This document shows, piece after piece, positions 1 through 15,788 of a DNA stretch of 15,788 nt (positions within the stretch are counted from its first letter, which is position 1; every line of letters starts with the position of its first letter). The position numbers and the translations under genes are program-made. The notes under the pieces are model-generated. The model ran no database searches and had not been told where the DNA came from. It saw only the letters and a list, made by a program, of their open reading frames with translations. The stretch is from Bdellovibrionota bacterium (lineage in GTDB: Bacteria > Bdellovibrionota > UBA1018 > UBA923), in NCBI GenBank assembly GCA_040754655.1, contig JBFMCE010000091.1, positions 1 through 15,788 of the forward strand, read 5' to 3'.

Positions 1-423
1 GGCCTTGGGAAGGAACTCCTCTGCTGCGATATATCCTGATTGTTTAGTCGTCTTCTCACGCGGCAAGGCTTTTTTAGGGACCTGAAAAACCGCTTTTGGG
101 AAAGCACTGTGAAAAACCTCACCCAAAGGCAATTGGTAATATTCTGAAATCCAATTGAAGAAATGGAAATCCTTAGCCGAGAAAACAACCGAATCAAATG
201 GAACGCTCAGCACCTCTTTGAGCTCAATCCCTCGAAGCTTGGGGTCAGCGAGATCTGTAAGCGAGACTACGAAACCTTCGATTACCCTTGAACGAAAGGG
301 CACTTTGACTAGGCTTCCTACGCGAAGGCCCTCCTTGAGATCTTCAGGCACGAGGTAAGATAAAGGTCCCGGTAGAGGGCGAGGAACGATGACATTGGCT
401 ACTAAAGGAACTACCTGATCCAT
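1..423 (-). CDS. priA: Primosomal protein N' (PriA), 5' part; runs off the left edge of the window
   Basis: Not in the ORF track. Manual translation from ATG at 423 is open to position 1: MDQVVPLVANVIVPRPLPGPLSYLVPEDLKEGLRVGSLVKVPFRSRVIEGFVV...FFNWISEYYQLPLGEVFHSAFP. This matches the PriA N-terminal 3'-DNA-binding domain pattern (Y.vP....G..V.VPF....G.V; W.s.YY..p.Gev). The start overlaps the upstream gene end by 13 nt. Confidence 0.9.
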   Translation of the reverse strand, partial: MDQVVPLVANVIVPRPLPGPLSYLVPEDLKEGLRVGSLVKVPFRSRVIEGFVVSLTDLADPKLRGIELKEVLSVPFDSVVFSAKDFHFFNWISEYYQLPLGEVFHSAFPKAVFQVPKKALPREKTTKQSGYIAAEEFLPKA

Positions 424-1250
424 TTGAGGTACGTCGCTATAAAGTCTCTGGTGTTCCCGTCAATATCTGATTTTACTCGTGAAGTCGGATGGGTCTTTGA
501 ATCCAGCGCTTTTACCGAGAGTGTTTCGATGCGCAACCAGAGTCTGCCGTCACGCATGACTTGAATCGACTTCGGGTAGAGAAAACTCTTCGGATTGCCG
601 TAGACCTGGTATTGCGAAAACCTGAAGTCCAAGGGCTCTGAACTAAACCCAGATTCGGGCGCCGATGGCATGACAGCGCGTAGCGGAAGATAACTGTCCT
701 TTTCAACCCAAAGTTGGGGAGCCTTGGGCATCTGTTGGTCTTTTGCCTGTCTTTCGCTTCCAATGGTGATCGCTACTCTGTTTTCATGGCGTGTAAGCGC
801 GACAGTAGATTCAGGTTTGTAAGGCAGAGAGCCTTCTTTCTCTGAGTAAAGCTCGGTCTCGTTCTTCAAGGGAAGGCCGCGAAGCTTCAAGTGTTCGAAA
901 ATCGCCCCTTCATCTCGAATCATCAAAAGGTCGTAAAGCGTTGGGCGACCTAAGACGCCGGCGTTCGGGCCAGTGAGCTTTCGTGAATGAGAGGCGAGTT
1001 CTTCGCCGTTCTCATCAAGAAGCCGGATAAAAGAGGTATCCGTTCCGATCAACGAGAGCGTTTCTGAAAAAGCTCGATGAAATTCTCCGTTAGACTTATA
1101 AACATGGATCTTCTGCGAGAATTGCAGATCGGCGATGTTTGCATGTTTTTTTGCAAGCATGCGTACCACGTAAAAACTAGGTGATACATAAGCTGACGCT
1201 GAAGAGCTTACCAGCATCAGGCTCGCCACAAATGAAATTGAAAGACGCAT
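411..1250 (-). CDS. Secreted hypothetical protein, possibly LolA-like fold
   Basis: The ORF track starts at 1322, inside galU. ATG at 1250, 7 nt after the galU stop, gives a Sec signal peptide MRLSISFVASLMLVSSSASA|YV. The C-terminal half is beta-rich, and LWVEKDSYLPLR...FRFSQY resembles LolA-superfamily proteins. The fold call is inference. Confidence 0.7.
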   Translation of the reverse strand: MRLSISFVASLMLVSSSASAYVSPSFYVVRMLAKKHANIADLQFSQKIHVYKSNGEFHRAFSETLSLIGTDTSFIRLLDENGEELASHSRKLTGPNAGVLGRPTLYDLLMIRDEGAIFEHLKLRGLPLKNETELYSEKEGSLPYKPESTVALTRHENRVAITIGSERQAKDQQMPKAPQLWVEKDSYLPLRAVMPSAPESGFSSEPLDFRFSQYQVYGNPKSFLYPKSIQVMRDGRLWLRIETLSVKALDSKTHPTSRVKSDIDGNTRDFIATYLKWIR

Positions 1251-1257
1251 CAGGAAC

Positions 1258-2121
1258 TTACCCCAGGTATTCTGATAATACCCTTCGCACCCCATCGGCA
1301 AGATCTGGTCGCTTGAGCGCAAAGGCTATCGTTGCTTCGATAAACCCAAGTTTATCGCCAGTATCGTACCGTCTGCCATCAAAAAGATAAGCAAGCAGTC
1401 CTTCTTCTACGGCCAGTCGTGCCAAAGCGTCGGTGAGTTGAATTTCTCCGCCGCGCCCGGGCGTGGTTTCAGCAATGAATTCAAAGACGTCAGGCGTAAG
1501 CACGTAGCGCCCAGGGCAAGCAAGTTGCGAAGGAGAATGCTCGGGCTGAGGTTTTTCAACCATCTCAGTCACCGTATAAAGTTGGTCGGTGATGCGTTTG
1601 CCCCCGATGATGCCGTACTTTGAAACTTCCTTTTTTGGCACCTTCATCACGCCGATGACTGAGGTCTCGCGCTCTTCAAAAACATTGATCAGTTGTTTGA
1701 TGCAGGGAACTTCCGAGACAATGAGGTCATCGCCCAATAAAACAGCAAATGGCTCATCACCCACCACCTGGCGTGCTGCGAGAACAGCATGCCCAAGGCC
1801 CAGGGGTTGTTTTTGACGAACCGCAATGATGTTCGCCATTTTCGAGACGTTCTCGGTAACCTCAAGCAAATCGCTCTTCTTCTTCTGCCTCAAGGTTTCT
1901 TCAACTTCAAAAGAGTGATCGAAGTGATCAACGATAGAGTCTTTTCCTCGGGCCGTAATGAGGATGATGTCTTCGATTCCGGCATGCACGCATTCTTCGA
2001 TGATGTACTGAATCATCGGTTTATCGATGATCGGGATCATTTCCTTCGGAATCGATTTTGTGGCTGGAAGAAAGCGCGTACCAAGGCCTGCAGCCGGAAT
2101 GACAGCCTTTTTCACCTTCAT
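1258..2121 (-). CDS. galU: UTP--glucose-1-phosphate uridylyltransferase
   Basis: KKAVIPAAGLGTRFLPATKSIPKEM, RQKQPLGLGHAV, LLGDD, MVEKP, GRYVL, GGEIQLTDA and YDTG motifs. GGAGG RBS at 2132-2136. Confidence 0.97.
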   Translation of the reverse strand: MKVKKAVIPAAGLGTRFLPATKSIPKEMIPIIDKPMIQYIIEECVHAGIEDIILITARGKDSIVDHFDHSFEVEETLRQKKKSDLLEVTENVSKMANIIAVRQKQPLGLGHAVLAARQVVGDEPFAVLLGDDLIVSEVPCIKQLINVFEERETSVIGVMKVPKKEVSKYGIIGGKRITDQLYTVTEMVEKPQPEHSPSQLACPGRYVLTPDVFEFIAETTPGRGGEIQLTDALARLAVEEGLLAYLFDGRRYDTGDKLGFIEATIAFALKRPDLADGVRRVLSEYLG

Positions 2122-2169
2122 AGACGAATCCCCTCCCTCGTCTTAAGAAAAAATCTTTTGATGCGCCGA

Positions 2170-2544
2170 TCAGGCGTAACGATAACGGTGTTCCGCGCCT
2201 TCGAGCTCGGATTTGCAATCGATGCAAAGCGTCGTAACTGGGCGTGCTTTCAAGCGCTGTTCTGCAATTTCTTCGCCACAGCGTTCGCATTCGCCGAAGG
2301 TTCCTTCATCAATACGACGAAGGGCCTCTTCGATTTTAGTCATTAGCATGCGTTCACGGTCGCGAATCTTCAACTGTAGAGTCTTGTCTGTTTCAACGCT
2401 TGCGACGTCAGTCCAGTCAGCGTACACTTCATCATCATGGGAGATTTGACTCACCGTTTGATGCATGTCTTTATTAAGAGACTCAAGCTGACCAGTCAGT
2501 ACTTTACGAAAATATTCCAATTTTGCCTTATTCATAAGCTCCAT
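2170..2544 (-). CDS. dksA: RNA polymerase-binding transcription factor DksA
   Basis: Coiled-coil tip DxxDxA (DWTDVA), RDRER..KIEEALRRI.EGTFG, and a C4 zinc finger CERC...RLKARP.TTLCIDCK. Alternative start at ATG 2535. Confidence 0.93.
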   Translation of the reverse strand: MELMNKAKLEYFRKVLTGQLESLNKDMHQTVSQISHDDEVYADWTDVASVETDKTLQLKIRDRERMLMTKIEEALRRIDEGTFGECERCGEEIAEQRLKARPVTTLCIDCKSELEGAEHRYRYA

Positions 2545-3444
2545 ACCTTTAACCCAGCGCGAAACCGAAGTAAAGACTCCCCCCGGAGAGCTTTTTACTG
2601 GGCAACTGGGGCTGTTTTGGCCTGGACCATTAATTCCGCTCTAGCTCTAGATTTTCAATCTTCTCGAACACTTAGCCTTGCTCAGAGCGGCAGGGGTGGT
2701 GCTCTTCTCAACGACACAATTACATTGAATCCAAGCCTGTTAGGTTTTCAGCCAATCTCCTCGGTTTCTGGAACCTTTAATTGGTTCAATAGTCCCCAGG
2801 TGAATGACGGTACTCAAAATCGCCTCTATAACGTTTCAGTTATTGACGGGAAAAACCAGTACGTCAATGCAGGGCTCTCTTTTACTCGAAGACCTGACCT
2901 CGATTTTATACATGCCGCATTGGCCAAGCGTGCATTGCAATGGCTTTCTTTTGGTGCTTCATTAAAGCGGTTTTCAAGTTACTCCAACTCCCGCGCGGCG
3001 GCCGGAGGTTCAGTAAATGGTTTTGATGGGGGATTATCCGCATCAATCGCCTTTCCTCCGAGTTTGATTTCTACTCCGATCCAACTCGGGTTTACCGCAG
3101 ACAACTTAATGCATTCCTCGAAGGACGAACCCTACGTCGGCCCTCGACAGTTGGGCGCCGGCGTAAAAGTGACCTTGCGCGAGATGCTCATGCTCTACGG
3201 GGACATCGTTGAAAATTATTCGCATTTCACGGGAGCTTATCCCATCTACAGCGCTGGAGCTGAGATCAGCTTAGGCGCAGATTTCTATGCGCGAGGCGGG
3301 TTATTTGGCTTTCGCGAGTCGGGATGGAGTTTTGGTGGCGGTTGGGTTGGCCCTCGCATGGGCGTAAGTTACGGTTATCAGAACAGGCAAGTCAGGGCGG
3401 ATCGCAGTTACCAACACGCCGTAACCATGGATATTTTCATGTAG
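2437..3444 (+). CDS. Outer-membrane beta-barrel protein, FadL/OmpP1/PorV-like (start uncertain)
   Basis: Signal-peptide-like segment RRAFYWATGAVLAWTINSALA|LD, followed by RTLSLAQSGRG..NDTITLNPSLLG, which resembles the N-terminal R..aMGga...NPA motif of FadL/PorV-type barrels. Then alternating Gly/aromatic beta-strands to the C-terminus. The true start cannot be fixed (see findings). Confidence 0.65.
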   Translation: MGDLTHRLMHVFIKRLKLTSQYFTKIFQFCLIHKLHTFNPARNRSKDSPRRAFYWATGAVLAWTINSALALDFQSSRTLSLAQSGRGGALLNDTITLNPSLLGFQPISSVSGTFNWFNSPQVNDGTQNRLYNVSVIDGKNQYVNAGLSFTRRPDLDFIHAALAKRALQWLSFGASLKRFSSYSNSRAAAGGSVNGFDGGLSASIAFPPSLISTPIQLGFTADNLMHSSKDEPYVGPRQLGAGVKVTLREMLMLYGDIVENYSHFTGAYPIYSAGAEISLGADFYARGGLFGFRESGWSFGGGWVGPRMGVSYGYQNRQVRADRSYQHAVTMDIFM

Positions 3445-3445
3445 C

Positions 3446-4237
3446 TCATCTCCGCCAAAATAATTTTGGTTTGTGAGAGTGTGGGTTTTTTCCAATTGAA
3501 ATGTCTTCATCATCAACGCCATAAATATCGGCGATCAACTTCGTGGTTAAGGTTTCTTCAAAGCTTCCGGCTGAGTAAACGCTTCCCTGGTGAAGCCAAA
3601 TGACGTTTGAGCAGAACTCAGCGGCTAAATTGAGATCATGACTTACCACCAATATGGTCATCCCTTCATTTTTCAGCGCATTGAGAAGCATGAAGACTTT
3701 CTGTTGGTACTTGATGTCTAGGTTGGCGGTGGCCTCGTCAAACAAGAGCACCTTCGGTGTTTGAGCAATGGCCCTGGCGATCAACACTAGCTGCAATTCG
3801 CCGAGAGAGAGCGAGGCCAGGGAAGTGTTTTCAAAACCTGCTATCCCGACCTTATCGATAGCGCTACGAGCGATGGAATAGTCTTCGTGAGTGGGCCTTG
3901 ACCAGTAATCGGTCCAGGGATAGCGCGCCTGCAAGACGAAATTCAAAACCGAGATTGAAAACGTGGTCTTCAAAAAACCAGGGACGAATGCGATGTGACG
4001 GGCAAGCTCCAACCTTGTCCATTGTTGCACTGGTTTCGAGTTCCATGAGATCTCCCCTGAGAGGTCTTTTGACGGTAAAAAGCCGCAGGCGAGTCGAAGC
4101 AAAGTCGACTTGCCAGAGCCATTGGGCCCGGCCAAACACCAATAAGATCCTGTCTCGATTGAAAAACTGATGCCGGAAAGAGCCGAGTTCTTTTGAGAAG
4201 GATACCGATAATCAAGGTTTCTGATCGTCAACTGCAC
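3446..4237 (-). CDS. ABC transporter ATP-binding protein, BtuD/FepC/FecE (iron-chelate/cobalamin) family
   Basis: GTG start. Walker A GPNGSGKST, signature LSLGE, ARAIAQ.P, Walker B/D-loop LLFDEATANLD, H-switch VSHDLNLA, and C-terminal LT...IADIYGV. Confidence 0.92.
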   Translation of the reverse strand: MQLTIRNLDYRYPSQKNSALSGISFSIETGSYWCLAGPNGSGKSTLLRLACGFLPSKDLSGEISWNSKPVQQWTRLELARHIAFVPGFLKTTFSISVLNFVLQARYPWTDYWSRPTHEDYSIARSAIDKVGIAGFENTSLASLSLGELQLVLIARAIAQTPKVLLFDEATANLDIKYQQKVFMLLNALKNEGMTILVVSHDLNLAAEFCSNVIWLHQGSVYSAGSFEETLTTKLIADIYGVDDEDISIGKNPHSHKPKLFWRR

Positions 4238-4243
4238 TTGTTG

Positions 4244-5191
4244 TTACCGCTCCTGCTTCCGAGCAATCATCAAGAAAAATGGGGCCCCCATGAGCGCCAT
4301 CACAACCCCTACGGGAAGCTCGGAAGGACGCGCAACTACTCGGGCTGCGACGTCTGAACACGCGATCAATGCAGCGCCGCCGAGAAAAGAGGCTGGTATC
4401 AAGGTAAAATGCCGGCGCAACCCTAGTCTGCGAAGGGTATGGGGAACGATGAGGCCGACAAATCCGATGACGCCTGCCACTGACACGCAGACCGCCGTCA
4501 TCAGGGCAACCAAGATGAAAACTCTTCTGCGAAAGGCGCCTATATTTAATCCTACGCTTTCGGCTGAGAGCTCATCGACGGAGAGCAGATCCAAAGGCTT
4601 CCAATGAAGCCATCCGATCACCGTCGCGATGCACATGAGTGCAAGTGTTGCCGAGGCTTCGCTCAGTGACAACGGACCAAAAGCTCCCATGAGCCAAGTG
4701 AAAGTGCTGGTCCAAGCGGCCGGATCAGCCAAAGCCATGACAAGCGTCGCTAGAGAAGTGAAAAAGAAACCCACGATGACGCCCGCCAGCAGCACCTCGG
4801 TAGAATGCCTAAAACTCTTTCTAAGCCAAAAGCCCAAGAAAACGAGGGCAGCCAGCGAGAAAATAAAGGCCGAGACTCCGGCTCCTAGAAATTGGTGCGA
4901 CTTGAGAAGTGATCCCAAGACGGCGCCAAGAGCCGCCGCAGAGGCGATTCCAATGGTGTATGGATCCGCCAGCGGATTGCCAAGGCTTGCTTGGATGAGC
5001 GTACCCGCGACCGCCAATCCCCCTCCTACCGCAATCGCACAAATGGTTCGAGGCACGCGCAAGAGCCAGAAGATCTGTTCGTCGAATCCTTCGGTGGCAC
5101 CGACGTTCAGTGAAAGCAATGCGCCTCCGATGAATAAGAGAACGAGCGCGGCGAATATATTAAACTCTAATCTCTTTTCCTTTTCGCGCAT
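4244..5191 (-). CDS. ABC transporter permease, BtuC/FecCD family
   Basis: LRVPR, Q...NPLADPY.IG, WLMG, AGVIGFVGLIVPH and ELPVG..MA.MGAPFF motifs, with many TM helices. Start placed at ATG 5191, which overlaps the upstream stop as TGATG; the ORF track start at 5254 lies inside the upstream gene. Confidence 0.93.
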   Translation of the reverse strand: MREKEKRLEFNIFAALVLLFIGGALLSLNVGATEGFDEQIFWLLRVPRTICAIAVGGGLAVAGTLIQASLGNPLADPYTIGIASAAALGAVLGSLLKSHQFLGAGVSAFIFSLAALVFLGFWLRKSFRHSTEVLLAGVIVGFFFTSLATLVMALADPAAWTSTFTWLMGAFGPLSLSEASATLALMCIATVIGWLHWKPLDLLSVDELSAESVGLNIGAFRRRVFILVALMTAVCVSVAGVIGFVGLIVPHTLRRLGLRRHFTLIPASFLGGAALIACSDVAARVVARPSELPVGVVMALMGAPFFLMIARKQER

Positions 5192-6639
5192 CAGATGATC
5201 TTTCCAAGTTCTTCCAATCCCTTTAGTAGCGTAAAGCCCGGTTTCGTCAGCCATTCCCCGGGCACGATGTAGACTTGATTTGAGCGCACGGCGCGCATGT
5301 TCTTGAACTGTAGCCAGAACTTGCGCGACTGCTCCGCCTCATTGCCGGAAGCGGTGAGCTTGCAAATGATGAGTACCTCTGGGTCTTTTGCGATGACTTC
5401 CTCAGGATTGGGCCGCGGGTACTTCGTGGGGGCATCGGAGAATATATTGTCGCCACCTGAGATTCTGACAAGCTCATCGATGAAGGTGCGTTTGCTGATC
5501 GTGATAAGAGGTTCCCAGCCTACTTGAATAAATACTTTCTTCTTTGTCTCGTGATTCGGCGTGCTTTTGTTTTTAGAAAAAGCCTTCCTAAGCGCGGCGA
5601 TTTTGGTCTGATCCTTCTGGCCCAAAGTTTTTGAAATCATCTCCGAGGTGCGGATGATGTCTGAGAGAGATTCTGTGTTGATGGTCAGGATCTTAAGCCC
5701 CAGTTTTTCAAGCTGGCTTACCGTTGAAGGCTCGTTTCCATCGATGCTTGCGAGCACGAGATCCGGGCGTAGTTTATAAATAGTTTCGACTGATAAATTG
5801 TTGTAGGGTCCCAGCAGATTCACTTTTCTTGAGAGATTTTCGGGGATGCTCGTGTATTCCGGCGCCCCAACCAGTCGATCGCCATAACCGAGGTCTATGA
5901 CCAATTCGGCGAGGCTTGGGATCAAGGCTACTATTCTTTCGGGCGCCTTCTCAAAAACCACCTTCTTTCCGCGGTAATCGGTCAAGGTCTGGTGAGCCGA
6001 GGCATCCTGGGGATGGAACGCGATCAATTGCGCCCCAACTAATAAGCCGACAAAAACCGAAGTTAAAAGTTTATTCCAATTGTCGCGGTGTCTTCCAAAG
6101 ACGATGAAAACCATGATGAAGATCGCCAGTTTGTCGCTTGTGCCGGGTAAGAAGAGGATCGCTCCTGCTAAGAGGCATAACATCGCGAATAAAGATCCTA
6201 GTGCTGAGACTCTAGTCGTTGCTAGCGAGAGAAGATAAACTAAAATGCTTGCGCCTCCCAGCCACGGATTGAATGCTAGCGCCGCTCCCAGCGTCGTAGA
6301 GACCCCCTTGCCTCCTCGAAACGAGAGAAAAGGCGAAAAACAATGGCCTAAAACTGAGGTTAACCCTATCCACAATGCAAGGTCTGGCCCCAGCTGTTCG
6401 TGTCGCGACGACAACTGGAGGTAATAAGCTACTGGCACGGCTCCTTTCAGAAAATCGAAGAGAAAGGTAAGGGCGCCAGGCACGACCCCTGCGGTCCGAA
6501 CGACGTTTGTCGCTCCGATGTTTGAACTGCCGACTTTTCGTAGATCAGAAACTCCCCAAAGCTTCGCGATAATCCAACCGAATGGGATTGCGCCGAGCAA
6601 GAATGAAACAGTGAGGGCTATGTACGCAGGGGTTTCCAT
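5191..6639 (-). CDS. plsY: Fusion of glycerol-3-phosphate acyltransferase PlsY (aa ~1-192) and a BtuF-like class III substrate-binding protein (aa ~216-482)
   Basis: N-terminal half: GAIPFG, DLRKVGSSNIGATNVVR, DFLKG, GHCFSPFLSFRGGKGVST and RHRDN (PlsY motifs 1-3). C-terminal half: TDYRG..V....PERIVAL.PSLAE, E.I..LRPDLV, FIDEL..ISGG.NIF, EEVIAKDPEV and AVRSNQVY (helical-backbone metal-chelate receptor). One uninterrupted reading frame. Confidence 0.9.
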   Translation of the reverse strand: METPAYIALTVSFLLGAIPFGWIIAKLWGVSDLRKVGSSNIGATNVVRTAGVVPGALTFLFDFLKGAVPVAYYLQLSSRHEQLGPDLALWIGLTSVLGHCFSPFLSFRGGKGVSTTLGAALAFNPWLGGASILVYLLSLATTRVSALGSLFAMLCLLAGAILFLPGTSDKLAIFIMVFIVFGRHRDNWNKLLTSVFVGLLVGAQLIAFHPQDASAHQTLTDYRGKKVVFEKAPERIVALIPSLAELVIDLGYGDRLVGAPEYTSIPENLSRKVNLLGPYNNLSVETIYKLRPDLVLASIDGNEPSTVSQLEKLGLKILTINTESLSDIIRTSEMISKTLGQKDQTKIAALRKAFSKNKSTPNHETKKKVFIQVGWEPLITISKRTFIDELVRISGGDNIFSDAPTKYPRPNPEEVIAKDPEVLIICKLTASGNEAEQSRKFWLQFKNMRAVRSNQVYIVPGEWLTKPGFTLLKGLEELGKII

Positions 6640-7397
6640 GCTTTGCTTCTATAACGATAAAGCGCGATTGCCCCCAAAATAACGATGATCGAGATGAATT
6701 GAGAAGTCGAGAGCACGTTTTCAATGACAAAACCCCTGATTTTATCTCCTCGGAAGATCTCAAGGATCGATCGAATGATGGAATAACCGATGAAATAGAG
6801 GCACAAAAGCTGGCCATCAAACTTCTTCCTCACGCGCAGCCAACGCAAAAAGAAAAATAACGCGAACAGCGACGCAGATTCATACAGTTGCGTGGGATGA
6901 AGGTAGACGCCATGCAAGTGCGGCTCAACTAAGCTGGAATAGAGCTTGATGCCCCAATTCTCACCCGTGGGTTTGCCGTAACAGCAACCTGCTGAGAGGC
7001 ACCCGAGCCTGCCAAATGCATGCGCCAAGGGTACGGATGTCGCGCTGAGGTCCAGCATGGTCCAACGCGGAAGTTTGTGTTTTTTCGTATACCAAAGGAA
7101 AAATGGAATATTAAGGAGCGGCCCACCGAAAAAAACAAGCCCTCCTTCCCAAACATAAAAGATCTCAATAGGGTGGCTTGAATAATAAGACCAGCGAGTC
7201 AAAACATAAAGGATTCGCGAGCCGATCATTCCGATCAAGAGCGACCAGAAGCCAAGGTCGACCATCTTCTCGCCCGGTAGGCCAAGTCTTTCGGTTTCAC
7301 GCTTCGCTACCCACAGTGATAACAAGAAGCCCGTCGCGATCAGCAGCCCATAAGTGTGTATGGGAAAACCCCCAATCTCAATGAGCACCGGAAACAT
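6618..7397 (-). CDS. lgt: Prolipoprotein diacylglyceryl transferase
   Basis: TYGL, GSRILYV, WEGGLVFFGG, GRLGC..AGCCYG, HPTQLYES and Y..IR..LE.FR motifs. Lies directly after lspA. Confidence 0.95.
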   Translation of the reverse strand: MFPVLIEIGGFPIHTYGLLIATGFLLSLWVAKRETERLGLPGEKMVDLGFWSLLIGMIGSRILYVLTRWSYYSSHPIEIFYVWEGGLVFFGGPLLNIPFFLWYTKKHKLPRWTMLDLSATSVPLAHAFGRLGCLSAGCCYGKPTGENWGIKLYSSLVEPHLHGVYLHPTQLYESASLFALFFFLRWLRVRKKFDGQLLCLYFIGYSIIRSILEIFRGDKIRGFVIENVLSTSQFISIIVILGAIALYRYRSKAWKPLRT

Positions 7398-7893
7398 GGG
7401 TTTTCCTCTGGTGGAGTTCCTTCTGGATGATGTCTAGGATAAGAACTCCTACGCCGATGCAGATCGCCATATCCGCTATATTGAAAGCCGGAAAATGAAC
7501 CGAGTATTTCCAATGGAAATCAAGGAAATCGATGACGTAGTTATACGCAGCTCGATCAATCAAGTTTCCCAACGCTCCGCCAATCACCAGTGAAAGGGCG
7601 GATGAGAGCTTTAAATCTTTATCTTCGATTTGCCGGAAAACGTAAAAGATCACCCCTAAGGCGATCAAGGGAGTGATGATAAAAAAAGGCACGCGAAAAG
7701 ACGCATCCCATCGCGCAAGCAGACCGAAAGCCGCTCCCGGATTGCGAACATAGGTTAAATTGAAAAAACCCTCGATGATCGAAAGCGACTCCCCCAACTG
7801 AAACTTTTGCGTGACCAGATGTTTGGTCAGTTGATCAAGGGAGATGATGGTTCCAGTTACGGCGAGCAATACGAGATATTTAAGCTTCATCAT
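7378..7893 (-). CDS. lspA: Lipoprotein signal peptidase (SPase II)
   Basis: DQLTK, NPGAAFG, GGALGNLIDR, VIDF and AFNIAD motifs, with both catalytic Asp residues present. Classic position after ileS, with an ATGA overlap. Confidence 0.97.
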   Translation of the reverse strand: MMKLKYLVLLAVTGTIISLDQLTKHLVTQKFQLGESLSIIEGFFNLTYVRNPGAAFGLLARWDASFRVPFFIITPLIALGVIFYVFRQIEDKDLKLSSALSLVIGGALGNLIDRAAYNYVIDFLDFHWKYSVHFPAFNIADMAICIGVGVLILDIIQKELHQRKTHVSGAH

Positions 7894-10670
7894 GCAATTC
7901 CTTCAACAGCGGTGACGCAGCGCTTGCACAATTGAGGGTGAGCCGGGCTTTGCCCCACTTCGGTCGTGTAGACCCAACATCGCGCGCATTTTTCACCTAA
8001 AGCACGTTCTACTTTAACTTCAAGGCCCTTGCCTTCCGTAAGTTCGATTTTTGAGACGATAAAGAGCCTTGCCAAATCTTCGCGCACATTATTGATGGCA
8101 GCAATCTTTTCTTTTGGAACCGCAACCGATACTTTTGCCTCGAGTGAGTGACCAATGTGTTTTGCGCTTCGAGCATTCTCAAGAGATTTATTGATAGTCT
8201 CACGCAACTCAAGGGCTGCTTCAACTCTATGAAAAGCTTCTTCCCTTCCGCTGACGCTTTGCCAGTTAGGAAAATCAGCTTCAAATACCGATCCGCTTTG
8301 TTTGAGATGTTTCCAAACCTCTTCAGCGGTAAAGCTCAAGATAGGGGCTAGCCCTGTCGCTAGCGCGACGCCGATTTTATGTAGTGCCGCTTGAGAAGAA
8401 CGGCGTTCGCGAGAGTTCTTGGCCGAAGTATAGAGCCTGTCCTTCAAAATATCGAAATACAAAGAGCTGAGATCGACGGCGCAAAAGTTCACGAGCGCAT
8501 GATAAGCAAGGTGGAACTCATAAGACTCATAAGATTGGCGCAACTTCGCCAGGAATTTCTCAGTCCGATACAAGGCCCATCGGTCTAGATCGCAGTAATC
8601 GGCGTCATCGGGGGCCATCGACGGTTCATAATCATAAAGATTGCCCAAGACGTAACGGAAGGTATTCCTGACCTTGCGATAAGATTCTGAAACCCGGTCG
8701 ATGGTTTCAAAAGAGAAATTGAGGTCATTCCTGTAGTCTTCAATCACGACCCAAAGCCGTAGAATTTCGGCTCCGAATTTATTTGTTATCTCAAAGGGGT
8801 CGACGACGTTGCCCTTTGACTTTGACATTTTTCGTCCATCTTTGTCGTTCACAAAGCCATGGGTAAGAACTTTTTTGAATGGCGCTGATCCGCGCGATTC
8901 TACGGCGGTGAGCAATGAAGTCTGAAACCATCCGCGATGTTGATCGCTGCCTTCAAGATAAAGATCGGCAGGCCAGGTGACCTTTCCCTGATTCAAACGG
9001 CTTGCCAAAACCGCGGCATGGCTCACGCCCGAATCAAACCAAACGTCCAGGATATCGGTTTCTTTTCTGAATTTTCGCGGATCTTTCTCGCCGCATTTTG
9101 AACAGCTTGTCTGAGGTTTGATGAGTTTCTCAACAGGCCATTCATACCATGCATTAGGACCATTCTTTTCGATGATAGAGGCTACGTGCTCAAAGCTGTC
9201 TTGCGAACTGACGGCCTCATTGCAACCTTCGCAGTAAAACACGGTGATAGGCACGCCCCAGACGCGCTGCCTTGAGATGCACCAATCCGGCCTGCTCTCA
9301 ACCATGCCTAGGATGCGGTTAATGCCCCAACCCGGAATCCATTCGACTTTATGGATTTCCGCGATCGCGCGTTTTCGTAAGCCAGTAGCTTCCATCCCGA
9401 TAAACCATTGTGGGGTCGCTCGGAAGATCACGGGTTTGATGCAACGCCAGCAGTGCGGGTAGGAATGTTGAATCTCTGAATGCTTGAGCAAGTGACCTGA
9501 GCTCTGCAGGTCTTCGATGATTTTTTTATTGGCCTCGAAAACCTTTGTCCCCTTGTAAGCAGGTACTTCTTCGGTGAGGCGCCCATAAGAATCCACGGGT
9601 GCCAATACCTCAAGTCCATATCTTAAACCAACTCTGTAGTCATCTACGCCATGTCCCGGAGCGGTATGAACAGCCCCCGTCCCTGCTTCAAGCGTCACAT
9701 GCTCGCCTAAAATAATGAGTGAACTCCTGTTCATGAAAGGATGTTCAGCCGAAAGCCTTTCAAAAGATGATCCTTTTAAAGTTGCTCTCTTTGTTCCCTG
9801 AAGGGTTACGTCGCTTAGGAATTTTTCTCTGAGCCCTTCAGCCACGATCAAGACTTCAGTGCCGGTATCGACGGCCGCATATTCAAACTCTGGGTGCAAA
9901 GCTATCGCCACGTTCGCGGGGAGCGTCCAAGGAGTGGTTGTCCAAATCACCACTGCGACTTTCTTTCCCTGGGCCGCCTCGGAAAGCGCGGGAAGTTTGG
10001 CGATGGACTCGTTTTTTAGGTAGAACTTCACATAAATTGAGGGGCTGCGGTGATCGTGATACTCAATCTCAGCATCAGCTAACGCAGTCGCGCAATTGGC
10101 GCACCAATATACGGGTTTATTGCCCTTATAGAGGTTGTTCGCTTTAGAGATACGACCTAGTTCGCGAACGATGTTTGCAACGTACTCATCGTTCATGGTG
10201 AGGTAGGGTTTCTGCCAGTCTCCGAACACGCCCAGCCTCTTAAATTGGTCTCGTTGTTTATTGATATAAGTAAACGCGAATTCCTTGCAAAAATTTCGGA
10301 TCTCTACTTTTGAGAGGCTTGCTTTGTCTTTTTTCTGGTCACGAAGTTGTTTTTCAACGCCAAGCTCGATCGGCAGGCCGTGACAATCCCAGCCAGGGAT
10401 GAATTCCGCATGATACCCCGACATGTTTTTGTATTTCACTACGATGTCTTTCAGAACTTTATTGAGCGTGTGGCCTATGTGGATGTTTCCATTCGCGTAC
10501 GGGGGGCCGTCGTGCAAGACGAAAAGCGGTTTGCCTGAGCGCTTTTTCACCATCTTGCCGTAAGAATCTTGCGCCTCCCATTGAGCGACTTGTTCGGGTT
10601 CTCGCTGAGGCAGGCTCGCCTTCATGGGAAAGTCAGTCTGGGGCAGGTTGAGCGTAGATTTATAGTCCAT
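7890..10670 (-). CDS. ileS: Isoleucine--tRNA ligase, type 1
   Basis: DGPPYANGNIHIGH, GWDCHGLPIE, WTTTPWTLPAN, GTGAVHTAPGHG, DWCISRQR, EGSDQHRGWF, KMSKS, and the C-terminal zinc finger CARCW...CKRC typical of IleRS1. Confidence 0.99.
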   Translation of the reverse strand: MDYKSTLNLPQTDFPMKASLPQREPEQVAQWEAQDSYGKMVKKRSGKPLFVLHDGPPYANGNIHIGHTLNKVLKDIVVKYKNMSGYHAEFIPGWDCHGLPIELGVEKQLRDQKKDKASLSKVEIRNFCKEFAFTYINKQRDQFKRLGVFGDWQKPYLTMNDEYVANIVRELGRISKANNLYKGNKPVYWCANCATALADAEIEYHDHRSPSIYVKFYLKNESIAKLPALSEAAQGKKVAVVIWTTTPWTLPANVAIALHPEFEYAAVDTGTEVLIVAEGLREKFLSDVTLQGTKRATLKGSSFERLSAEHPFMNRSSLIILGEHVTLEAGTGAVHTAPGHGVDDYRVGLRYGLEVLAPVDSYGRLTEEVPAYKGTKVFEANKKIIEDLQSSGHLLKHSEIQHSYPHCWRCIKPVIFRATPQWFIGMEATGLRKRAIAEIHKVEWIPGWGINRILGMVESRPDWCISRQRVWGVPITVFYCEGCNEAVSSQDSFEHVASIIEKNGPNAWYEWPVEKLIKPQTSCSKCGEKDPRKFRKETDILDVWFDSGVSHAAVLASRLNQGKVTWPADLYLEGSDQHRGWFQTSLLTAVESRGSAPFKKVLTHGFVNDKDGRKMSKSKGNVVDPFEITNKFGAEILRLWVVIEDYRNDLNFSFETIDRVSESYRKVRNTFRYVLGNLYDYEPSMAPDDADYCDLDRWALYRTEKFLAKLRQSYESYEFHLAYHALVNFCAVDLSSLYFDILKDRLYTSAKNSRERRSSQAALHKIGVALATGLAPILSFTAEEVWKHLKQSGSVFEADFPNWQSVSGREEAFHRVEAALELRETINKSLENARSAKHIGHSLEAKVSVAVPKEKIAAINNVREDLARLFIVSKIELTEGKGLEVKVERALGEKCARCWVYTTEVGQSPAHPQLCKRCVTAVEGIA

Positions 10671-10706
10671 AAGGATTTTTAGCTATAGCTGGTTTCAGGC
10701 GAAACT

Positions 10707-11591
10707 TCAAACGGCCCGAGTGGTTCTTCGGGCTTTGCTTCGGCTTGATCCGATGACCCCGATCACGATCAATACGCTTCCGAATATCGACCAGTTATCG
10801 GGGATTTCGCTCCAAATAGCCAAACCTATCAAAGCCGAAAAGAGCACGTTGAGCAGGCTCAAAGGGCTCGCCACAGACGCGGGCAAAAGCGAGTATGACT
10901 TCGTCATTGTCGCTTGGGCGGCTGTGGCAAACGTGCCACAGAGAAAAAGAAGAAGCCATTCTTTGGGGGTTGGGGGTACGTAGTGCATCACCATGGGCAC
11001 AAAGCTCAGTACGCTTGCCACTCCTGCAAAGGTGACAACAATGGAAGTCGTTGAAATCGACCGGGTTGCGACTTTGAGCGAGACATAGGCCACTGCCGAA
11101 GTGAGAGCGCTTGCGAAACCAGCGATTCCCCCTAAGGAAACGGCGTCAGCGCCGCTGAATTCAAAACTTGGCTTTAGGATGAAGGCAACGCCTACCAGAG
11201 CTAGTCCCACGAACATGACGGCTACTGGGGTAATTCGTTCGTGAAGGACGAAAAATGAAAGCAATAAAACAATGATCGGGGAAGTGTGATTCAGCATTAC
11301 GGCATCGGCAAGGCGCATATGCTCTAAGGCATAGAAGTATAATACTAATGAAACCCAGCCCGAAACTCCCCGGGTTAAAAGCGCAGGCCACTCTTTCCGC
11401 CAAGAATAGAGGGGGTCGCGAAAAGCCCACGGCAAGAGCCAAACAAGGTTGATGAATGCCCTGAAAAAAACGATCTCCCACGTCGGAAGATGCTCTAATG
11501 ACTTTACGATTCCAGCCATTATTGAGAAGAACAGTGAAGCAAGAACCATCCAGAGCAAGGGATTGATTTTAAGGTTAACTAACTTCGGCAC
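10707..11591 (-). CDS. EamA/DMT-family membrane transporter
   Basis: About 10 TM helices in two repeats, with EIVFFR, FYAL..M.LADA..LNHTSP...L.ERI and W.EIPD motifs. Start moved to GTG 11591, which has GAGGA 8 nt upstream and removes the overlap with the divergent gene. Confidence 0.88.
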   Translation of the reverse strand: MPKLVNLKINPLLWMVLASLFFSIMAGIVKSLEHLPTWEIVFFRAFINLVWLLPWAFRDPLYSWRKEWPALLTRGVSGWVSLVLYFYALEHMRLADAVMLNHTSPIIVLLLSFFVLHERITPVAVMFVGLALVGVAFILKPSFEFSGADAVSLGGIAGFASALTSAVAYVSLKVATRSISTTSIVVTFAGVASVLSFVPMVMHYVPPTPKEWLLLFLCGTFATAAQATMTKSYSLLPASVASPLSLLNVLFSALIGLAIWSEIPDNWSIFGSVLIVIGVIGSSRSKARRTTRAV

Positions 11592-11645
11592 CTTGTATAT
11601 CCTCGCCCGCAATTGTGCTAAGAAATGCAACTAAGGAGAAAAGCG

Positions 11646-12290
11646 ATGGCCTCAGTTCGTAGACAAAAGGAAGCATTGCGAGCCGCAGCTTTTGCATACC
11701 TCGCGGGGGCGCATTGTGTCACTGAAGAAGTCGAGAAGTCGTTAGAACTTGCAGACCCCAAAAGAGGCGCTCAACTCGTAGATTCGCAGCGTGAAATGCT
11801 TCGGGCCGATTATAAAAGGGTGATTGAATCGCGACCGGCGATCGAGACTTTTTTGGATGTGCTTGATGAAGAAGAGCTTTATCCCTTTGGTTCAGAATGG
11901 CCGAGAGATGAAATCGCGCAACTGATAGTATATTTGGTTCCACCAAAACTTCGTTTGGGAGACGATTCAGAGCCTGACTTGCGATTCCGGTTTAGAAAGG
12001 GATTCAAAAAAATACTCGCCGAATTCGCGTCGACCCTCGAAAGCATAGCACGACAACACAGTACCTTAGACCACTGGATGGCGCTTCTGCTCAACACCGC
12101 TTTTCATGCCGGAGTCGTAGCTGCCGCTCAAAGCGCTGAGAACTCAAAAGCCTACTACGCTGCGATTCCAGAGATTGAAGAAGAAACCGAACCTTGGAGC
12201 CGATATCCACAGCTACTAGAGCTTTTGGAGCGGCAGTTGCGCAGAGAAACCCGTCGTCGCACTGGTCTCGTGACTGGGTTAGATTTTTAG
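11646..12290 (+). CDS. Hypothetical protein, predicted soluble and alpha-helical
   Basis: Fills the gap between EamA and the rhodanese gene. ATG 11646 is preceded by a strong AAGGAG RBS (11633-11638). No signal peptide and no family recognised. Confidence 0.75.
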   Translation: MASVRRQKEALRAAAFAYLAGAHCVTEEVEKSLELADPKRGAQLVDSQREMLRADYKRVIESRPAIETFLDVLDEEELYPFGSEWPRDEIAQLIVYLVPPKLRLGDDSEPDLRFRFRKGFKKILAEFASTLESIARQHSTLDHWMALLLNTAFHAGVVAAAQSAENSKAYYAAIPEIEEETEPWSRYPQLLELLERQLRRETRRRTGLVTGLDF

Positions 12291-12298
12291 GGCCATAC

Positions 12299-12733
12299 TT
12301 ATTTGGCTTTTGTTATTGGTAAGCCAGCGCTTTTCCAGCTGTCGAAATCTTCAAAATAAGCCGTTTTAAAGCCTTCTTTTGAAAGTTTTTCAGCGTAGTG
12401 TTTCGCGCGGCCACCGCTGGCACAGTGAAAAACGATCTCTTTGTCTTTTGGAAGCGTTTTTACGAATTCTTTCCATTCGTTTTCACTACTCTCGATTTTG
12501 CTCGATGGAAACCATTTCGAAGGAGTGGCCTTTCCACTTTCTTTGAGCTCATCGCTTTCTCTGACGTCTATGAGAACGGCGAAGTCATTTGAAAGCATTC
12601 CGTAAGTTTCTTGAGGAGTCATGAGCCTAGGTGCGCGTGTTTCGGTCTTGGCCTTGCATGCCGACAGGAGAGCCAGCGCAAGGCATGTGAAAATGAAGGA
12701 TGTGAAAGTTTTTCGCCAAGGAATTGGTCGCAT
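12299..12733 (-). CDS. Rhodanese-domain lipoprotein
   Basis: ATG 12733 has an AAGGAG RBS. Signal peptide ends in lipobox LSA|C. Contains LIDVRE.DE and the active-site loop HCASGGRA, and ends in W..AGLP. Confidence 0.88.
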   Translation of the reverse strand: MRPIPWRKTFTSFIFTCLALALLSACKAKTETRAPRLMTPQETYGMLSNDFAVLIDVRESDELKESGKATPSKWFPSSKIESSENEWKEFVKTLPKDKEIVFHCASGGRAKHYAEKLSKEGFKTAYFEDFDSWKSAGLPITKAK

Positions 12734-12838
12734 TTCGTTCTCCTTGGCGTCTTTTACATTATCCAATTAAACATTGGAAATTTTCTCAAGTTTAGGTAGA
12801 TCAGTCTTTCTCAAAGATCTTTGCAAAGTTGAGTTAAC

Positions 12839-12928
12839 GGAGAGATGGCCGAGTGGCTTAAGGTACTCGCTTGGAAAGCGAGCGTTGGGTAACACCAACC
12901 GAGAGTTCGAATCTCTCTCTCTCCGCCA
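12839..12928 (+). tRNA. tRNA-Ser(GGA)
   Basis: Acceptor stem GGAGAGA/TCTCTCC, D-arm GCCGAGTGGCTTAAGGT, anticodon arm CTCGC-TTGGAAA-GCGAG, long variable arm GTTGG-GTAACA-CCAAC, T-arm GAGAG-TTCGAAT-CTCTC, G discriminator and encoded CCA. Confidence 0.98.
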
Positions 12929-13080
12929 TTTTAAGCAAGTCATTGCAAATCACAAGTAAGCACTGAGCGCGGCTACTTTGTGGCTTCAAATTGACTTTTC
13001 CTTCACCAGTCTAAGCCACTCTCGAAAAACTAACTTTTGTCAGGGGCCTAGGTGAACTCGGATTTTTGCTTAAGGGATTA

Positions 13081-13114
13081 GAAGAAGGTGTGAGGCTTTA
13101 CGGCCAGCCTCACA
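13081..13114 (-). terminator. Hairpin directly downstream of rpsR; probable terminator or 3' stabilising stem
   Basis: Perfect 9-bp inverted repeat TGTGAGGCT (13089-13097) / AGCCTCACA (13106-13114) with an 8-nt loop, 4 nt after the rpsR stop. The tail (CCUUCUUC) is only weakly U-rich. Confidence 0.6.
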
Positions 13115-13118
13115 ACAA

Positions 13119-13430
13119 TCAATATTCAGCGTGTTGAGGTGCCGAGGGCAACAAGGCAAGATGCCTCGCGCGCTTCACTGCCTGAGTAAGCTCGCGTTGT
13201 TGTCTTGCGTTGAGACGGCTGATCCTCGAAGGAACAAGTTTAGAGCCTTCAGAAAGGAAATTGCGAAGCGTTTCGACGTCTTTATAATCAAAGGTAAGGT
13301 CGGCGGGTGGTTTACGACGACGCCCCTTAAAACCGCCGCTTCCGCCATCTCGGTCTTTATAACTATCCTTGTCTTTATAGTTTTCTCTGTCGCCTCTATC
13401 GCCACGTCCAAAGTTGTCTCTATCTTCCAT
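13119..13430 (-). CDS. rpsR: 30S ribosomal protein S18, no zinc-binding cysteines, with a charged N-terminal extension
   Basis: [24 protein letters not shown].....[18 protein letters not shown] is the S18 core. GAGGA RBS upstream. Confidence 0.96.
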
Positions 13431-13458
13431 GTCTTTTCCTCAAATCTTTAAATAAGCG

Positions 13459-13782
13459 TTAAGCGAGTTCTTCTCCAGAGCTCTTTGCATATCGAACAGC
13501 TGAGAGTTTTCCGTTCTTTTCTACCCGCTTAATTCCAATGCGTGACGGCTTACCCTTACTGTCGAGTAGCATTACGTTTGAATAATTGATGGGGAGCTCT
13601 TTTTCGACGATGCCACCCTTAGGATTTGCTTGAGTGGGTTTAGAATGTTTTTTGCGAATATTTACGCCTTCTACGACGATTTTCATATCTTCCGGATAAA
13701 CCGCCGTTACTTTGCCAGCTTTTCCTTTACTGCTGCCCGCAATAACTTGTACGGTGTCACCTTTTTTGATCTTCAACTTCAT
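13459..13782 (-). CDS. rplX: 50S ribosomal protein L24
   Basis: [22 protein letters not shown] (KOW motif), VEGVN..KKH.KP, GGIVEKE.PI.YSNV and R.AKSSGE. GGAGG at 13795-13799. Confidence 0.97.
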
Positions 13783-13861
13783 AAATTAAATAAACCTCCA
13801 GAAACTGCTTTGAGTCGGGCTATTCAGATACCAGAATTTCCCTTTTCTTTCAGTATTTTTT

Positions 13862-14749
13862 CTACGGCGCCAGGCGATGCGTTTTCATCCATTGAGTTAC
13901 CAGCCCAGAAACTTCTTTGATCAGTGAACTTGCTCCGGCCTGGATATGATCGCCATTAGTTTGGACGCGTTCGACTTGAGCTTGAGAGTGTTCAAGCGAA
14001 TGCCAAAGCGCATCAACAGATGTTTTGGGTAAAAGATTGTCCTTTTCCGCGCTGACCATCAGCACACGTTGGTGAGATTTCAAGTTTGCAATTGATTCTT
14101 CCGGCGAAGGAGCTTCTAAATACCACCAGCCTATTGAGGTCACCAATTTGGCGAGTACTTCGCCAAGTAAACCAAACCGTGGTTGCAGCCTTTGAGCGAG
14201 GCGTTGTTCCAAGGTTTCAGGAATTTGAGCAAAACCATGAATCAGAATTACTCCTGTAATATCAGGATCTTCTGCGGCTGCAGCCAATGCAAATGGAGCT
14301 CCAAAACTTGCTCCAAGGATGAGCGTTTGCGTCTTATTGACATCGGGGCGCTGGTGCAAATACGACTTTAGAAGTCGTATTCCTTTTAACGTGTCTTGAA
14401 CCGCTCGTTTTGCTTCTGGCGCGTGTCGAAAACTTTGGGGAAACTCAAATCTCCTCGGAGGAGAAAATGGATAGTCAAAGCTTGCGGCAATGATCGGAAT
14501 AGATGGTTTTACAAGCTCTAATACTCGGGCTGCCCGTTCAAATCCTCCAAAAACGAGAAGGGTCGGAGTTTTTTCCTTTGTTTTTAGTGGGTTGGACACA
14601 AGAAGTGTCGCTCTGATCTCTTTGTCTGGTCGAATCGGAAGAGAGCAAAATTCGTGACGAACCGCGGTAGAAGTCGTTTCACTAGCTCCGAGAATACTAG
14701 GAAAAAGAAGGCCAATAAGGAAGGCGACGAGGCAAAAACAGTTCTTCAT
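13862..14749 (-). CDS. Secreted alpha/beta hydrolase (putative esterase/lipase)
   Basis: N-terminal signal peptide, FGG oxyanion-type loop, nucleophile elbow GASFG (S148), and candidate Asp237 (AEKDNLL) and His268 (GDHI). Confidence 0.82.
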   Translation of the reverse strand: MKNCFCLVAFLIGLLFPSILGASETTSTAVRHEFCSLPIRPDKEIRATLLVSNPLKTKEKTPTLLVFGGFERAARVLELVKPSIPIIAASFDYPFSPPRRFEFPQSFRHAPEAKRAVQDTLKGIRLLKSYLHQRPDVNKTQTLILGASFGAPFALAAAAEDPDITGVILIHGFAQIPETLEQRLAQRLQPRFGLLGEVLAKLVTSIGWWYLEAPSPEESIANLKSHQRVLMVSAEKDNLLPKTSVDALWHSLEHSQAQVERVQTNGDHIQAGASSLIKEVSGLVTQWMKTHRLAP

Positions 14750-14785
14750 TTACGACTTTGGTCATCGTAGTTCAATTTCGCCGGG

Positions 14786-14825
14786 AAAGAAATACCCCTA
14801 GCCTCATAAGGTGAAGCTAGGGGTA
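14786..14825 (-). terminator. Rho-independent terminator after the OmpA-like barrel gene
   Basis: Minus-strand RNA UACCCCUAGCUUCA-CCUUA-UGAGGCUAGGGGUA forms a 14-bp stem with one G-U pair that is only possible on this strand, followed by UUUCUUU. Confidence 0.85.
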
Positions 14826-14862
14826 GGAAAAGATATCCAAATACGCTTTTTAAAATCGTATA

Positions 14863-15729
14863 TTAAAGTGGTAATACTACCGAGCCGAAGACAAACAAAC
14901 CGGGGTCTGTGCCCTGAAAAGTCACTCCAGTATCTGCTCGGGCGGCAATATTTTCGTTAATAAGTAGCTTTAAGCCGCCGCCCAAGAAGGCATTGAAATA
15001 ACTGTCAGAGATATTCTCACCATTCACAACGACATTATCGCTCGAAGAAAATGAGGGGCCAACTGCTGCTTTGACGAAAGGCACAATTGGACTTTCGCTG
15101 ATGATCCAGTCGTAACGCAAGCCGCCATCTACGTGAAAAATAGTCGCATTAACGTCATTGTCGCCTGAGAGAAAGCTTAAGTAGAGGCTAGGCTCGAAAT
15201 AAAACGGGAAGTTTTTTGCAACTCGGAATGAGAGGTTGGTTCCTACGGAAAAAGCCGCTTTATCTTCAATGCTGATGCTACCAAGTACTGGGGAGATCTC
15301 GAAAAACGACAGTTGAGTGCCCTGGGGTTTAGGAGCTTGTTCCGTTTCAGAAGTGCCAGCCGATGAAGCAGGTGAACGTTTAGGTTGTTCACTTTTAGAT
15401 TCACTTTGAAGCTGGTCTAAAAACATCGGCGAACCGCTTTTCTCTTGTTCAGGTTGTAAAGGGGCTTGCTCGCTTAAGGTGCTCGGCGAACCTTCACTTG
15501 CCGGAGCTCTTTCACGTGATGGGACGACTTCAGTCTCTGCTTCAAGTTGATCTTCTTCGATCACCTCTTCTTCTGTAAACTGGTCATTTGTTTGAGCTTC
15601 ATCAAGATATGCGGGATCTTCAGCCCGAATCGGAGGCACGTCTTGGCTTGGCTCTGTAGAGTATTGCGCAAAGCTCATAGGCGTGGCGATGGCCATAAGA
15701 ATTGCTACTGTCAGCAAATGGTTCTTCAC
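14863..15729 (-). CDS. Outer-membrane protein: signal peptide, acidic disordered region of ~120 aa, and a C-terminal OmpA-like barrel of about 8 strands
   Basis: GTG start with GGAGG RBS. Signal peptide MKNHLLTVAILMAIATPMSFA|Q, an E/S/P/Q-rich linker, then strands such as GGLRYDW, IVPFVKAAVG, FLGGGLKLLI and NIAARAD that are typical of OMP beta-barrel domains. Confidence 0.78.
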   Translation of the reverse strand: MKNHLLTVAILMAIATPMSFAQYSTEPSQDVPPIRAEDPAYLDEAQTNDQFTEEEVIEEDQLEAETEVVPSRERAPASEGSPSTLSEQAPLQPEQEKSGSPMFLDQLQSESKSEQPKRSPASSAGTSETEQAPKPQGTQLSFFEISPVLGSISIEDKAAFSVGTNLSFRVAKNFPFYFEPSLYLSFLSGDNDVNATIFHVDGGLRYDWIISESPIVPFVKAAVGPSFSSSDNVVVNGENISDSYFNAFLGGGLKLLINENIAARADTGVTFQGTDPGLFVFGSVVLPL

Positions 15730-15788
15730 TTGAATTCCCTCCGTCTAATTATTAAATATCTTAGTTCAAGGCCAGTGTTGCAATGCAG

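Follow-up and report, generated by a model that had tools for sequence, protein, structure and literature searches.

Known PlsY proteins have about 190 to 200 residues, and the stand-alone PlsY of Aquifex aeolicus (5xj5) has a seven-transmembrane (7-TM) fold. Substrate-binding proteins (SBPs) such as BtuF, which works with the type II B12 importer BtuCD (1n2z, 5ysc), are made as separate pre-proteins with an N-terminal signal peptide. In OpuA and GlnPQ, the binding domains are fused to their own ATP-binding cassette (ABC) permease, and fbcH of Bradyrhizobium, for cytochrome b/c1, encodes a two-protein precursor that is split at an internal signal peptide, its halves being subunits of one complex. 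Here we describe a gene that joins a complete PlsY in frame to a BtuF-like SBP, found in 15,788 nucleotides of DNA from a Bdellovibrionota bacterium (assembly GCA_040754655.1, contig JBFMCE010000091.1, positions 1 to 15,788); this whole stretch is called the window below. The fusion is genuine and is evolutionarily maintained in a family of Bdellovibrionota. The best overall explanation, to which we give a probability of about 0.6, would be a maintained fusion of formerly adjacent genes in which the SBP's signal peptide persists internally as an eighth TM segment (TM8) and the SBP domain is exported.

The window protein resembles each of these systems in part. Like stand-alone PlsY it has a full-length family match, the motifs and the 7-TM fold, but about 290 additional C-terminal residues form an eighth hydrophobic segment and a predicted periplasmic domain. 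The SBP domain shares the class III fold with BtuF, and a BtuC-like permease and an ATPase are encoded directly downstream; unlike BtuF, it is not a separate pre-protein, its putative signal peptide being internal, behind a 7-TM enzyme. As in OpuA and GlnPQ, an SBP domain is attached covalently to a membrane protein, but here the partner is PlsY, an unrelated enzyme, and the FecCD permease has an open reading frame (ORF) of its own. With fbcH the gene shares a polytopic membrane protein that is followed by an internal segment resembling a signal peptide and by a domain for the periplasm, whereas its two halves have unrelated functions and a cut between them is predicted. The architecture belongs to known kinds, being either an exported SBP held covalently on a membrane protein or a precursor that contains two proteins and, between them, a signal peptide. 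Li et al. 2017 sought PlsY fusions in Pfam, and in the available part of that paper the only C-terminal fusion discussed is with the cytoplasmic DegV domain (PMC5700162).

Domains of the fused gene

The gene is a single ORF of 482 codons plus a stop, with no internal stop (Table 1). Residues 11 to 191 match PF02660 (G3P_acyltransf) over the entire profile (1-164 of 164; 146.9 bits, Pfam cut-off 24.1), and the NCBIfam equivalog for PlsY, TIGR00023, is passed with 138.8 bits (cut-off 137.2). Residues 236 to 460 match PF01497 (Peripla_BP_2) with 76 bits. A first-pass annotation of the window had claimed a stop-free PlsY-BtuF-like ORF of this length followed by a permease and an ATPase; translation and the two Pfam domains confirm the ORF, and Pfam and NCBIfam matches identify a FecCD permease and an ABC ATPase downstream. 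That annotation described the PlsY as near-complete. It is in fact complete, since the full PF02660 profile is covered and the separate PlsY of a genome from the window's own family (G001) ends three residues past the point at which the linker starts.

The PlsY part is under constraint. Among 28 aligned fused proteins, which are introduced below, G37, S38, N40, G42, A43, T44, N45, H99, S102, G109, G110 and G112 are invariant and P103 and K111 nearly so (at least 90%), and most of the invariant columns of the fused family fall in this part. These conserved stretches are the PlsY active-site motifs as named in the literature (Lu et al. 2007; Li et al. 2017). The protein was modelled with AlphaFold2 using the family alignment (mean predicted local distance difference test score, pLDDT, 89.3; predicted template modelling score, pTM, 0.55). 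Residues 1 to 185 have pLDDT values mostly above 85, and the model of the PlsY domain was matched by Foldseek to Aquifex PlsY 5xj5 with a template modelling score (TM-score) of 0.86 (target-normalised) and a root-mean-square deviation of 1.9 over 192 columns at 38% identity. PlsX (PF02504) is encoded elsewhere in the genome (contig C141, 322 bits). Since the motifs are invariant in the family and PlsX is present, the PlsY enzyme is very probably active.

The first-pass annotation suggested looking for a second plsY or a plsB. The fused gene is the sole PF02660 match in the genome, which is 90% complete, but the genome also encodes a PlsB-core-like acyltransferase of 553 aa (PF01553; contig C127, locus L019 1018-2679), so that the acylation of glycerol-3-phosphate may not depend on PlsY alone. 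Four of the PlsY-less relatives were searched for a homologue of the 553-aa protein, and each has one; the search of G001 gave none.

The second domain belongs to class III (cluster A) of the SBPs by its PF01497 match, its matches to the two-lobed, helical-backbone fold, and the adjoining FecCD permease and ATPase. It also matches TroA_like NF038402 with 72 bits, well over the cut-off of 30. The genome gave no second PF01497 match.

Recurrence and origin of the fusion

We searched about 5.8 billion proteins and scanned 116 genomes from the order, among them that of the window (G000). The protein search gave 28 further database proteins with both PF02660 and PF01497, 40-58% identical to the query, of which 27 have 451-510 aa and the last is a fragment of 379 aa. 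Their source assemblies are held by NCBI, JGI, ENA and Logan, and the named records that carry the fusion are metagenome-assembled genomes (MAGs) titled 'Deltaproteobacteria bacterium' or 'Bacteriovoracia bacterium'. Seven of the 116 genomes have the fusion full-length and stop-free (G000, G003, G004, where it is cut by a contig end, G005, G008, G009 and G040), so not all relatives keep the genes split, a point that the first-pass annotation had proposed to settle by such a search. Whether the junction might be an artefact was judged from recurrence across independent assemblies, and recurrence in many of them rules out an error of assembly or frame, bearing out the earlier view that a simple frameshift error does not explain the fusion.

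In an eighth genome, G007, the genes are fused but frameshifted in a poly-A run. The run, of Lys codons, lies inside the binding domain (locus L011, contig C125, at about 2118-2133), and the frameshift is either a homopolymer sequencing error or the mark of a pseudogene; this MAG is 71% complete and in 540 contigs. Some candidate fusions were rejected. In L027 (Bacteriovoracaceae) and L047 (Bdellovibrionia), tblastn alignments span residues 3-482 and 12-482 of the query, yet the genes are split and adjacent in different frames. The long open frames around the SBP gene in G101, G102 and G110 are stop-poor frames and not fusions.

The usual arrangement in the order points to the source of the fusion. 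In at least 41 of the 116 genomes the plsY and SBP matches are separate but adjacent, on the same contig and strand, and the common gene string is lspA-lgt-plsY-SBP-permease-ATPase. Six split loci were inspected, and all five separate SBPs there (G001, G038, G026, G019 and G002) start with an N-terminal signal peptide, that is, Met, Lys or Arg, a hydrophobic run and then small-x-small. In G001, the stop-to-stop frames of plsY and the SBP gene are offset and share 8 nt, so that a small indel close to the stop of plsY would be enough to make one frame of the two. Most likely, then, the fusion came from the merger of two adjacent genes, the plsY stop having been lost or bypassed with read-through of the plsY/SBP boundary.

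The fusion arose more than once. PlsY-SBP fusions in G040 (identical to P0175) and in P0211 keep the longer PlsY tail of their own lineages, and their junctions differ from one another and from those of the window's family, which makes at least three PlsY-SBP junction types. In a quick maximum-likelihood tree of the SBP domain (47 rows, LG+G4, with SH-aLRT support only and many nodes unresolved), the other 29 fused rows all lie in one clade with support 100, and G040 falls outside it. The main fused clade also includes the split G001, the PlsY-less G002, G006 and G023, and G015.

The same locus has further yielded two fusions of the SBP to Lgt, an enzyme with seven TM helices and a cytoplasmic C-terminus. 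In G069, Lgt and the SBP (PF01790 plus PF01497) are fused in frame without a plsY between them, and their linker resembles a signal peptide (P0106; locus L103, contig C100, 1071-2693, minus strand), and P0107, 45% identical to P0106, has a similar type of linker. Five relatives that have the same transporter locus lack a PF02660 match, namely G002, G006, G023, G101 and G069 (loci L017, L105, L009, L101 and L103; completeness 89, 94, 95, 88 and 56%, respectively). In all five, lgt directly precedes the SBP gene, as it also does in G102. The same SBP thus joins whichever membrane enzyme precedes it, which fits a read-through that topology tolerates and is hard to square with a partnership specific to PlsY.

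Metagenomes commonly encode other PlsY fusions, which here fall among P0039-P0098. PlsY is joined to PF13664 (DUF4149) in dozens of clusters of about 400-430 aa, to an Nramp domain (PF01566) in P0047 (563 aa), and to GpsA domains in P0090, P0092, P0094, P0096 and P0098 (about 584-591 aa). PlsY is N-terminal in these as it is in the window, but the partners are membrane or cytoplasmic proteins and none is an exported SBP; GpsA is a neighbour in the pathway. On the SBP side, P0033 (624 aa) has PF01497 and PF01032 in one protein, an SBP fused to a FecCD permease, and P0032 (Thermococcus) is a binding protein of 621 aa, about twice the usual length.

The first-pass annotation knew of no described PlsY-BtuF architecture. 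A full-text literature search, with supplements outside its reach, found no publication on a PlsY-SBP architecture; the architecture itself is already in databases, with several members in NCBI nr. These are named only 'glycerol-3-phosphate acyltransferase', and such PlsY-only labels hide the genome's only class III SBP and hence a probable corrinoid importer.

The linker and the fate of the binding domain

In the alignment of the 28 fused proteins, the invariant R183-H184...N187-W188 closes the PlsY part, and the SBP domain begins near D221. A Sec-type signal peptide for signal peptidase I consists of a basic n-region, an h-region of some 7-15 hydrophobic residues and a c-region whose -3 and -1 residues are small. 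The linker between them cannot be aligned, yet in all 28 it is hydrophobic and then has a short polar tail. In the window protein, R183, H184, R185 and K190 are basic, L191 to F208 are hydrophobic, and H209-P210-Q211-D212-A213-S214-A215 follow, then H216. Residues 191-215 have the same position and build as the signal peptides of the separate SBPs, with basic residues, a short hydrophobic core, Pro and Ala-x-Ala. The AlphaFold2 model has a helix at 185-206, pLDDT below 50 at 207-214 and the first strand of the SBP domain from 217; the low-confidence stretch stops one residue short of the cut predicted after A215.

According to the available part of the PlsY structure paper (PMC5700162), PlsY has seven TM helices, its two long functional loops are cytoplasmic, and its phosphate clamp, close to Arg183, is open on the cytoplasmic side; the same source (Li et al. 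2017) notes fusions in which DegV, a cytoplasmic domain, follows the C-terminus of PlsY. From seven TM helices, cytoplasmic loops and a C-terminal DegV, we infer that the N-terminus of PlsY is outside and its C-terminus inside, so that the linker would be an eighth segment running in to out and would put the SBP domain in the periplasm, the compartment in which a class III SBP has to work.

A model follows in which PlsY (7 TM, N-out, C-in) would be made first and its basic RHRxNWxK end would act as a positively charged n-region. Residues 191-215, the former N-terminal signal peptide of the SBP, would then be inserted in to out as TM8, bringing the BtuF-like domain to the periplasm, where it would serve the BtuC/BtuD-like importer encoded directly downstream. 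Signal peptidase I would cut after Ala-Ser-Ala (A213-A215), freeing a soluble SBP, while PlsY would keep one additional helix. In that case the fusion would be a precursor of two proteins that share their expression and are not otherwise coupled in function. In the first-pass annotation, PlsY was taken for a possible membrane anchor or export carrier of the SBP. It is right in that the SBP domain must cross the membrane, but the exporting element would be the SBP's own retained internal signal peptide and not PlsY.

As to whether the linker is cut, we lean towards cleavage by signal peptidase I. We do so given the many short cores, the persistence of Pro and Ala-x-Ala, the cleavable-looking signal peptides of the separate orthologues, the three signal peptidase I (PF10502) matches in the genome, and the tolerance of fusions to unrelated enzymes. 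Core length, taken by a crude measure as the uncharged run, has a median of 15 residues and a range of 11-23; it is 13 or less in 10 of the 28 linkers, which is short for a bilayer, and about 12 in P0211. Pro is present in 18 of the 28 linker tails. Strict Ala-x-Ala is present in 17, against a mean of 9.3 when each tail was shuffled (0 of 2000 shuffles reached 17), although the 28 sequences are related and the excess is therefore not an independent-sample statistic. Both features persist while the linker is otherwise free to vary.

The alternative is that the linker stays uncleaved as TM8, so that PlsY (or Lgt) permanently anchors the SBP to the inner membrane beside the permease, in the manner of the lipid or TM anchors of SBPs in monoderm bacteria and archaea. 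Several results favour such a tether or weigh against cleavage, besides the relatedness of the sequences. Uncharged cores of 20-23 residues occur in six of the 28 (P0003, P0005, P0013, P0016, P0020 and P0021) and are long enough for stable membrane anchors, strict Ala-x-Ala is missing from 11 of the tails, and a relaxed -3/-1 rule fails to separate the linkers from their shuffles (24 of 28 vs a mean of 24.05). AlphaFold2 renders the linker as one continuous 22-residue helix. The fusion has also been kept over deep divergence, down to 40% identity, which could mean an advantage, e.g. of a tether, and not neutrality. Set against these are the short cores, the persisting tail motifs, the ordinary signal peptides of the separate orthologues, and the host phylum: Bdellovibrionota are diderm, and the periplasm of diderm bacteria usually holds its binding proteins unattached. 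We regard a permanent tether as possible but doubtful. If true, a membrane enzyme of an essential pathway would have been recruited as the permanent anchor of a corrinoid-type SBP in a Gram-negative periplasm, with a 1:1 stoichiometry of enzyme and receptor. A functional link between import and envelope biogenesis, which would extend the tether, is even less likely.

The first-pass annotation had also raised the idea that nutrient import is physically coupled to membrane biogenesis. The importer would then cooperate with PlsY, e.g. through import that gates or localises the synthesis of phospholipids, and the two would be held in a complex by the fusion. Such a partnership would fit the conservation of the plsY-SBP neighbourhood in the order, in the split genomes as well as the fused ones, and the fact that one gene holds the only match to each of the two families in a genome that is 90% complete. 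It is at odds with the Lgt fusions P0106 and P0107, with the five transporter loci that lack a detectable PlsY, and with the at least 41 genomes of 116 in which the genes are split. In the structure model, moreover, a low-confidence linker joins two confident domains that have no fixed mutual orientation (pTM 0.55), and the active site of PlsY is cytoplasmic, going by the available part of PMC5700162, while the SBP domain would be in the periplasm. The proposal is unsupported and we consider it very improbable.

Just as improbable is an apparent fusion, in which the SBP is translated separately from an internal start and the two cistrons merely overlap in frame. There is an in-frame ATG at M176, 15 residues before the hydrophobic core, and some members have a Met within the linker (e.g. 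P0004, P0012 and P0016). However, no Shine-Dalgarno-like purine run precedes M176, the positions of the linker Met are not conserved, and the window gene has no ATG or GTG from K190 to the hydrophobic core, its sole in-frame TTG (L205) coming too late to leave a signal peptide. An independent cistron would need no open frame between the domains, yet the frame is stop-free in all 28 relatives.

On the favoured model, a merged gene with an internal signal peptide as TM8, the locus would be a clean natural case of packed membrane-protein genes merging harmlessly where topology allows, that is, where a C-in enzyme is followed by a signal peptide. The merging was repeated at the same locus with two different upstream enzymes. 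The gene may serve as a test bed for bacterial internal signal-peptide processing and for the tolerance of PlsY to an eighth helix. On the present evidence, it reveals no new connection of lipid synthesis with the uptake of nutrients.

Ligand and gene neighbourhood

A corrinoid is a plausible ligand, and heme or another iron complex is also possible. The best solved relatives of the SBP domain by sequence are BtuF proteins (5ysc, E 3.6e-26; 1n2z, E. coli BtuF, E 9.2e-24), and the same two are its best fold matches, with a TM-score of about 0.8. A cobalamin riboswitch above the gathering threshold (35.6 bits) lies elsewhere in the genome (contig C50, 8352-8443, minus strand; locus L108), and the genome has seven matches to B12-binding domains. 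Other results tell against a corrinoid: heme binders are nearly equal as fold matches, the BtuF equivalog NF002894 is not reached (119.7 bits, cut-off 234), the permease likewise misses the cut-off of BtuC, its best NCBIfam match (192.5 bits, cut-off 334), and no cobalamin riboswitch was found in the window at the gathering threshold.

The riboswitch at L108 precedes an ORF (L108 3-1373, minus strand) that runs off the locus and encodes 457 aa or more. Pfam gave nothing for it even at E 1, and its product could be a B12-related protein that has escaped recognition, perhaps one of the outer membrane.

The gene string of the window is ileS-lspA-lgt-plsY::SBP-permease-ATPase, tightly packed, and its features are collected in Table 1. 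The ATG of the permease shares a base with the TGA stop of the fused ORF at 5191 (a TGATG overlap).

Table 1. The fused gene, its parts and its neighbours in the window
Feature	Coordinates	Strand	Basis and remarks
Fused ORF: PlsY, signal-peptide-like linker and BtuF-like SBP	5191..6639	-	ORF call, translation, Pfam
PlsY domain, residues 1-190, 7 TM helices	6070..6639	-	PF02660, TIGR00023, structure model
Linker, residues 191-215	5995..6069	-	Hydrophobic helix, then His-Pro-Gln-Asp-Ala-Ser-Ala; predicted signal peptidase I site after A215
Class III (cluster A) SBP domain, BtuF-like, residues 216-482	5194..5994	-	PF01497, structure relatives
FecCD/BtuC-like permease, 315 aa from the ATG that overlaps the TGA of the fused ORF	4244..5191	-	PF01032, 246 bits
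ABC ATPase of the importer (BtuD/heme/FecE-like)	3446..4237	-	PF00005; every NCBIfam match below equivalog cut-offs
lgt (prolipoprotein diacylglyceryl transferase)	6618..7397	-	PF01790, 225 bits; 3' end overlaps the start of the fused ORF by 22 nt
lspA (signal peptidase II), upstream in the same string	7378..7893	-	PF01252
ileS, head of the gene string	7890..10670	-	PF00133, PF08264, PF06827

Three further ORFs of the window, at 2437-3444 (+), 411-1322 (-) and 11625-12290 (+), encode 335, 303 and 221 aa, and neither Pfam nor NCBIfam gave a match for them at E 0.001. The sole RNA family match in the window is a tRNA-Ser (anticodon GGA) at 12839-12928 (+).

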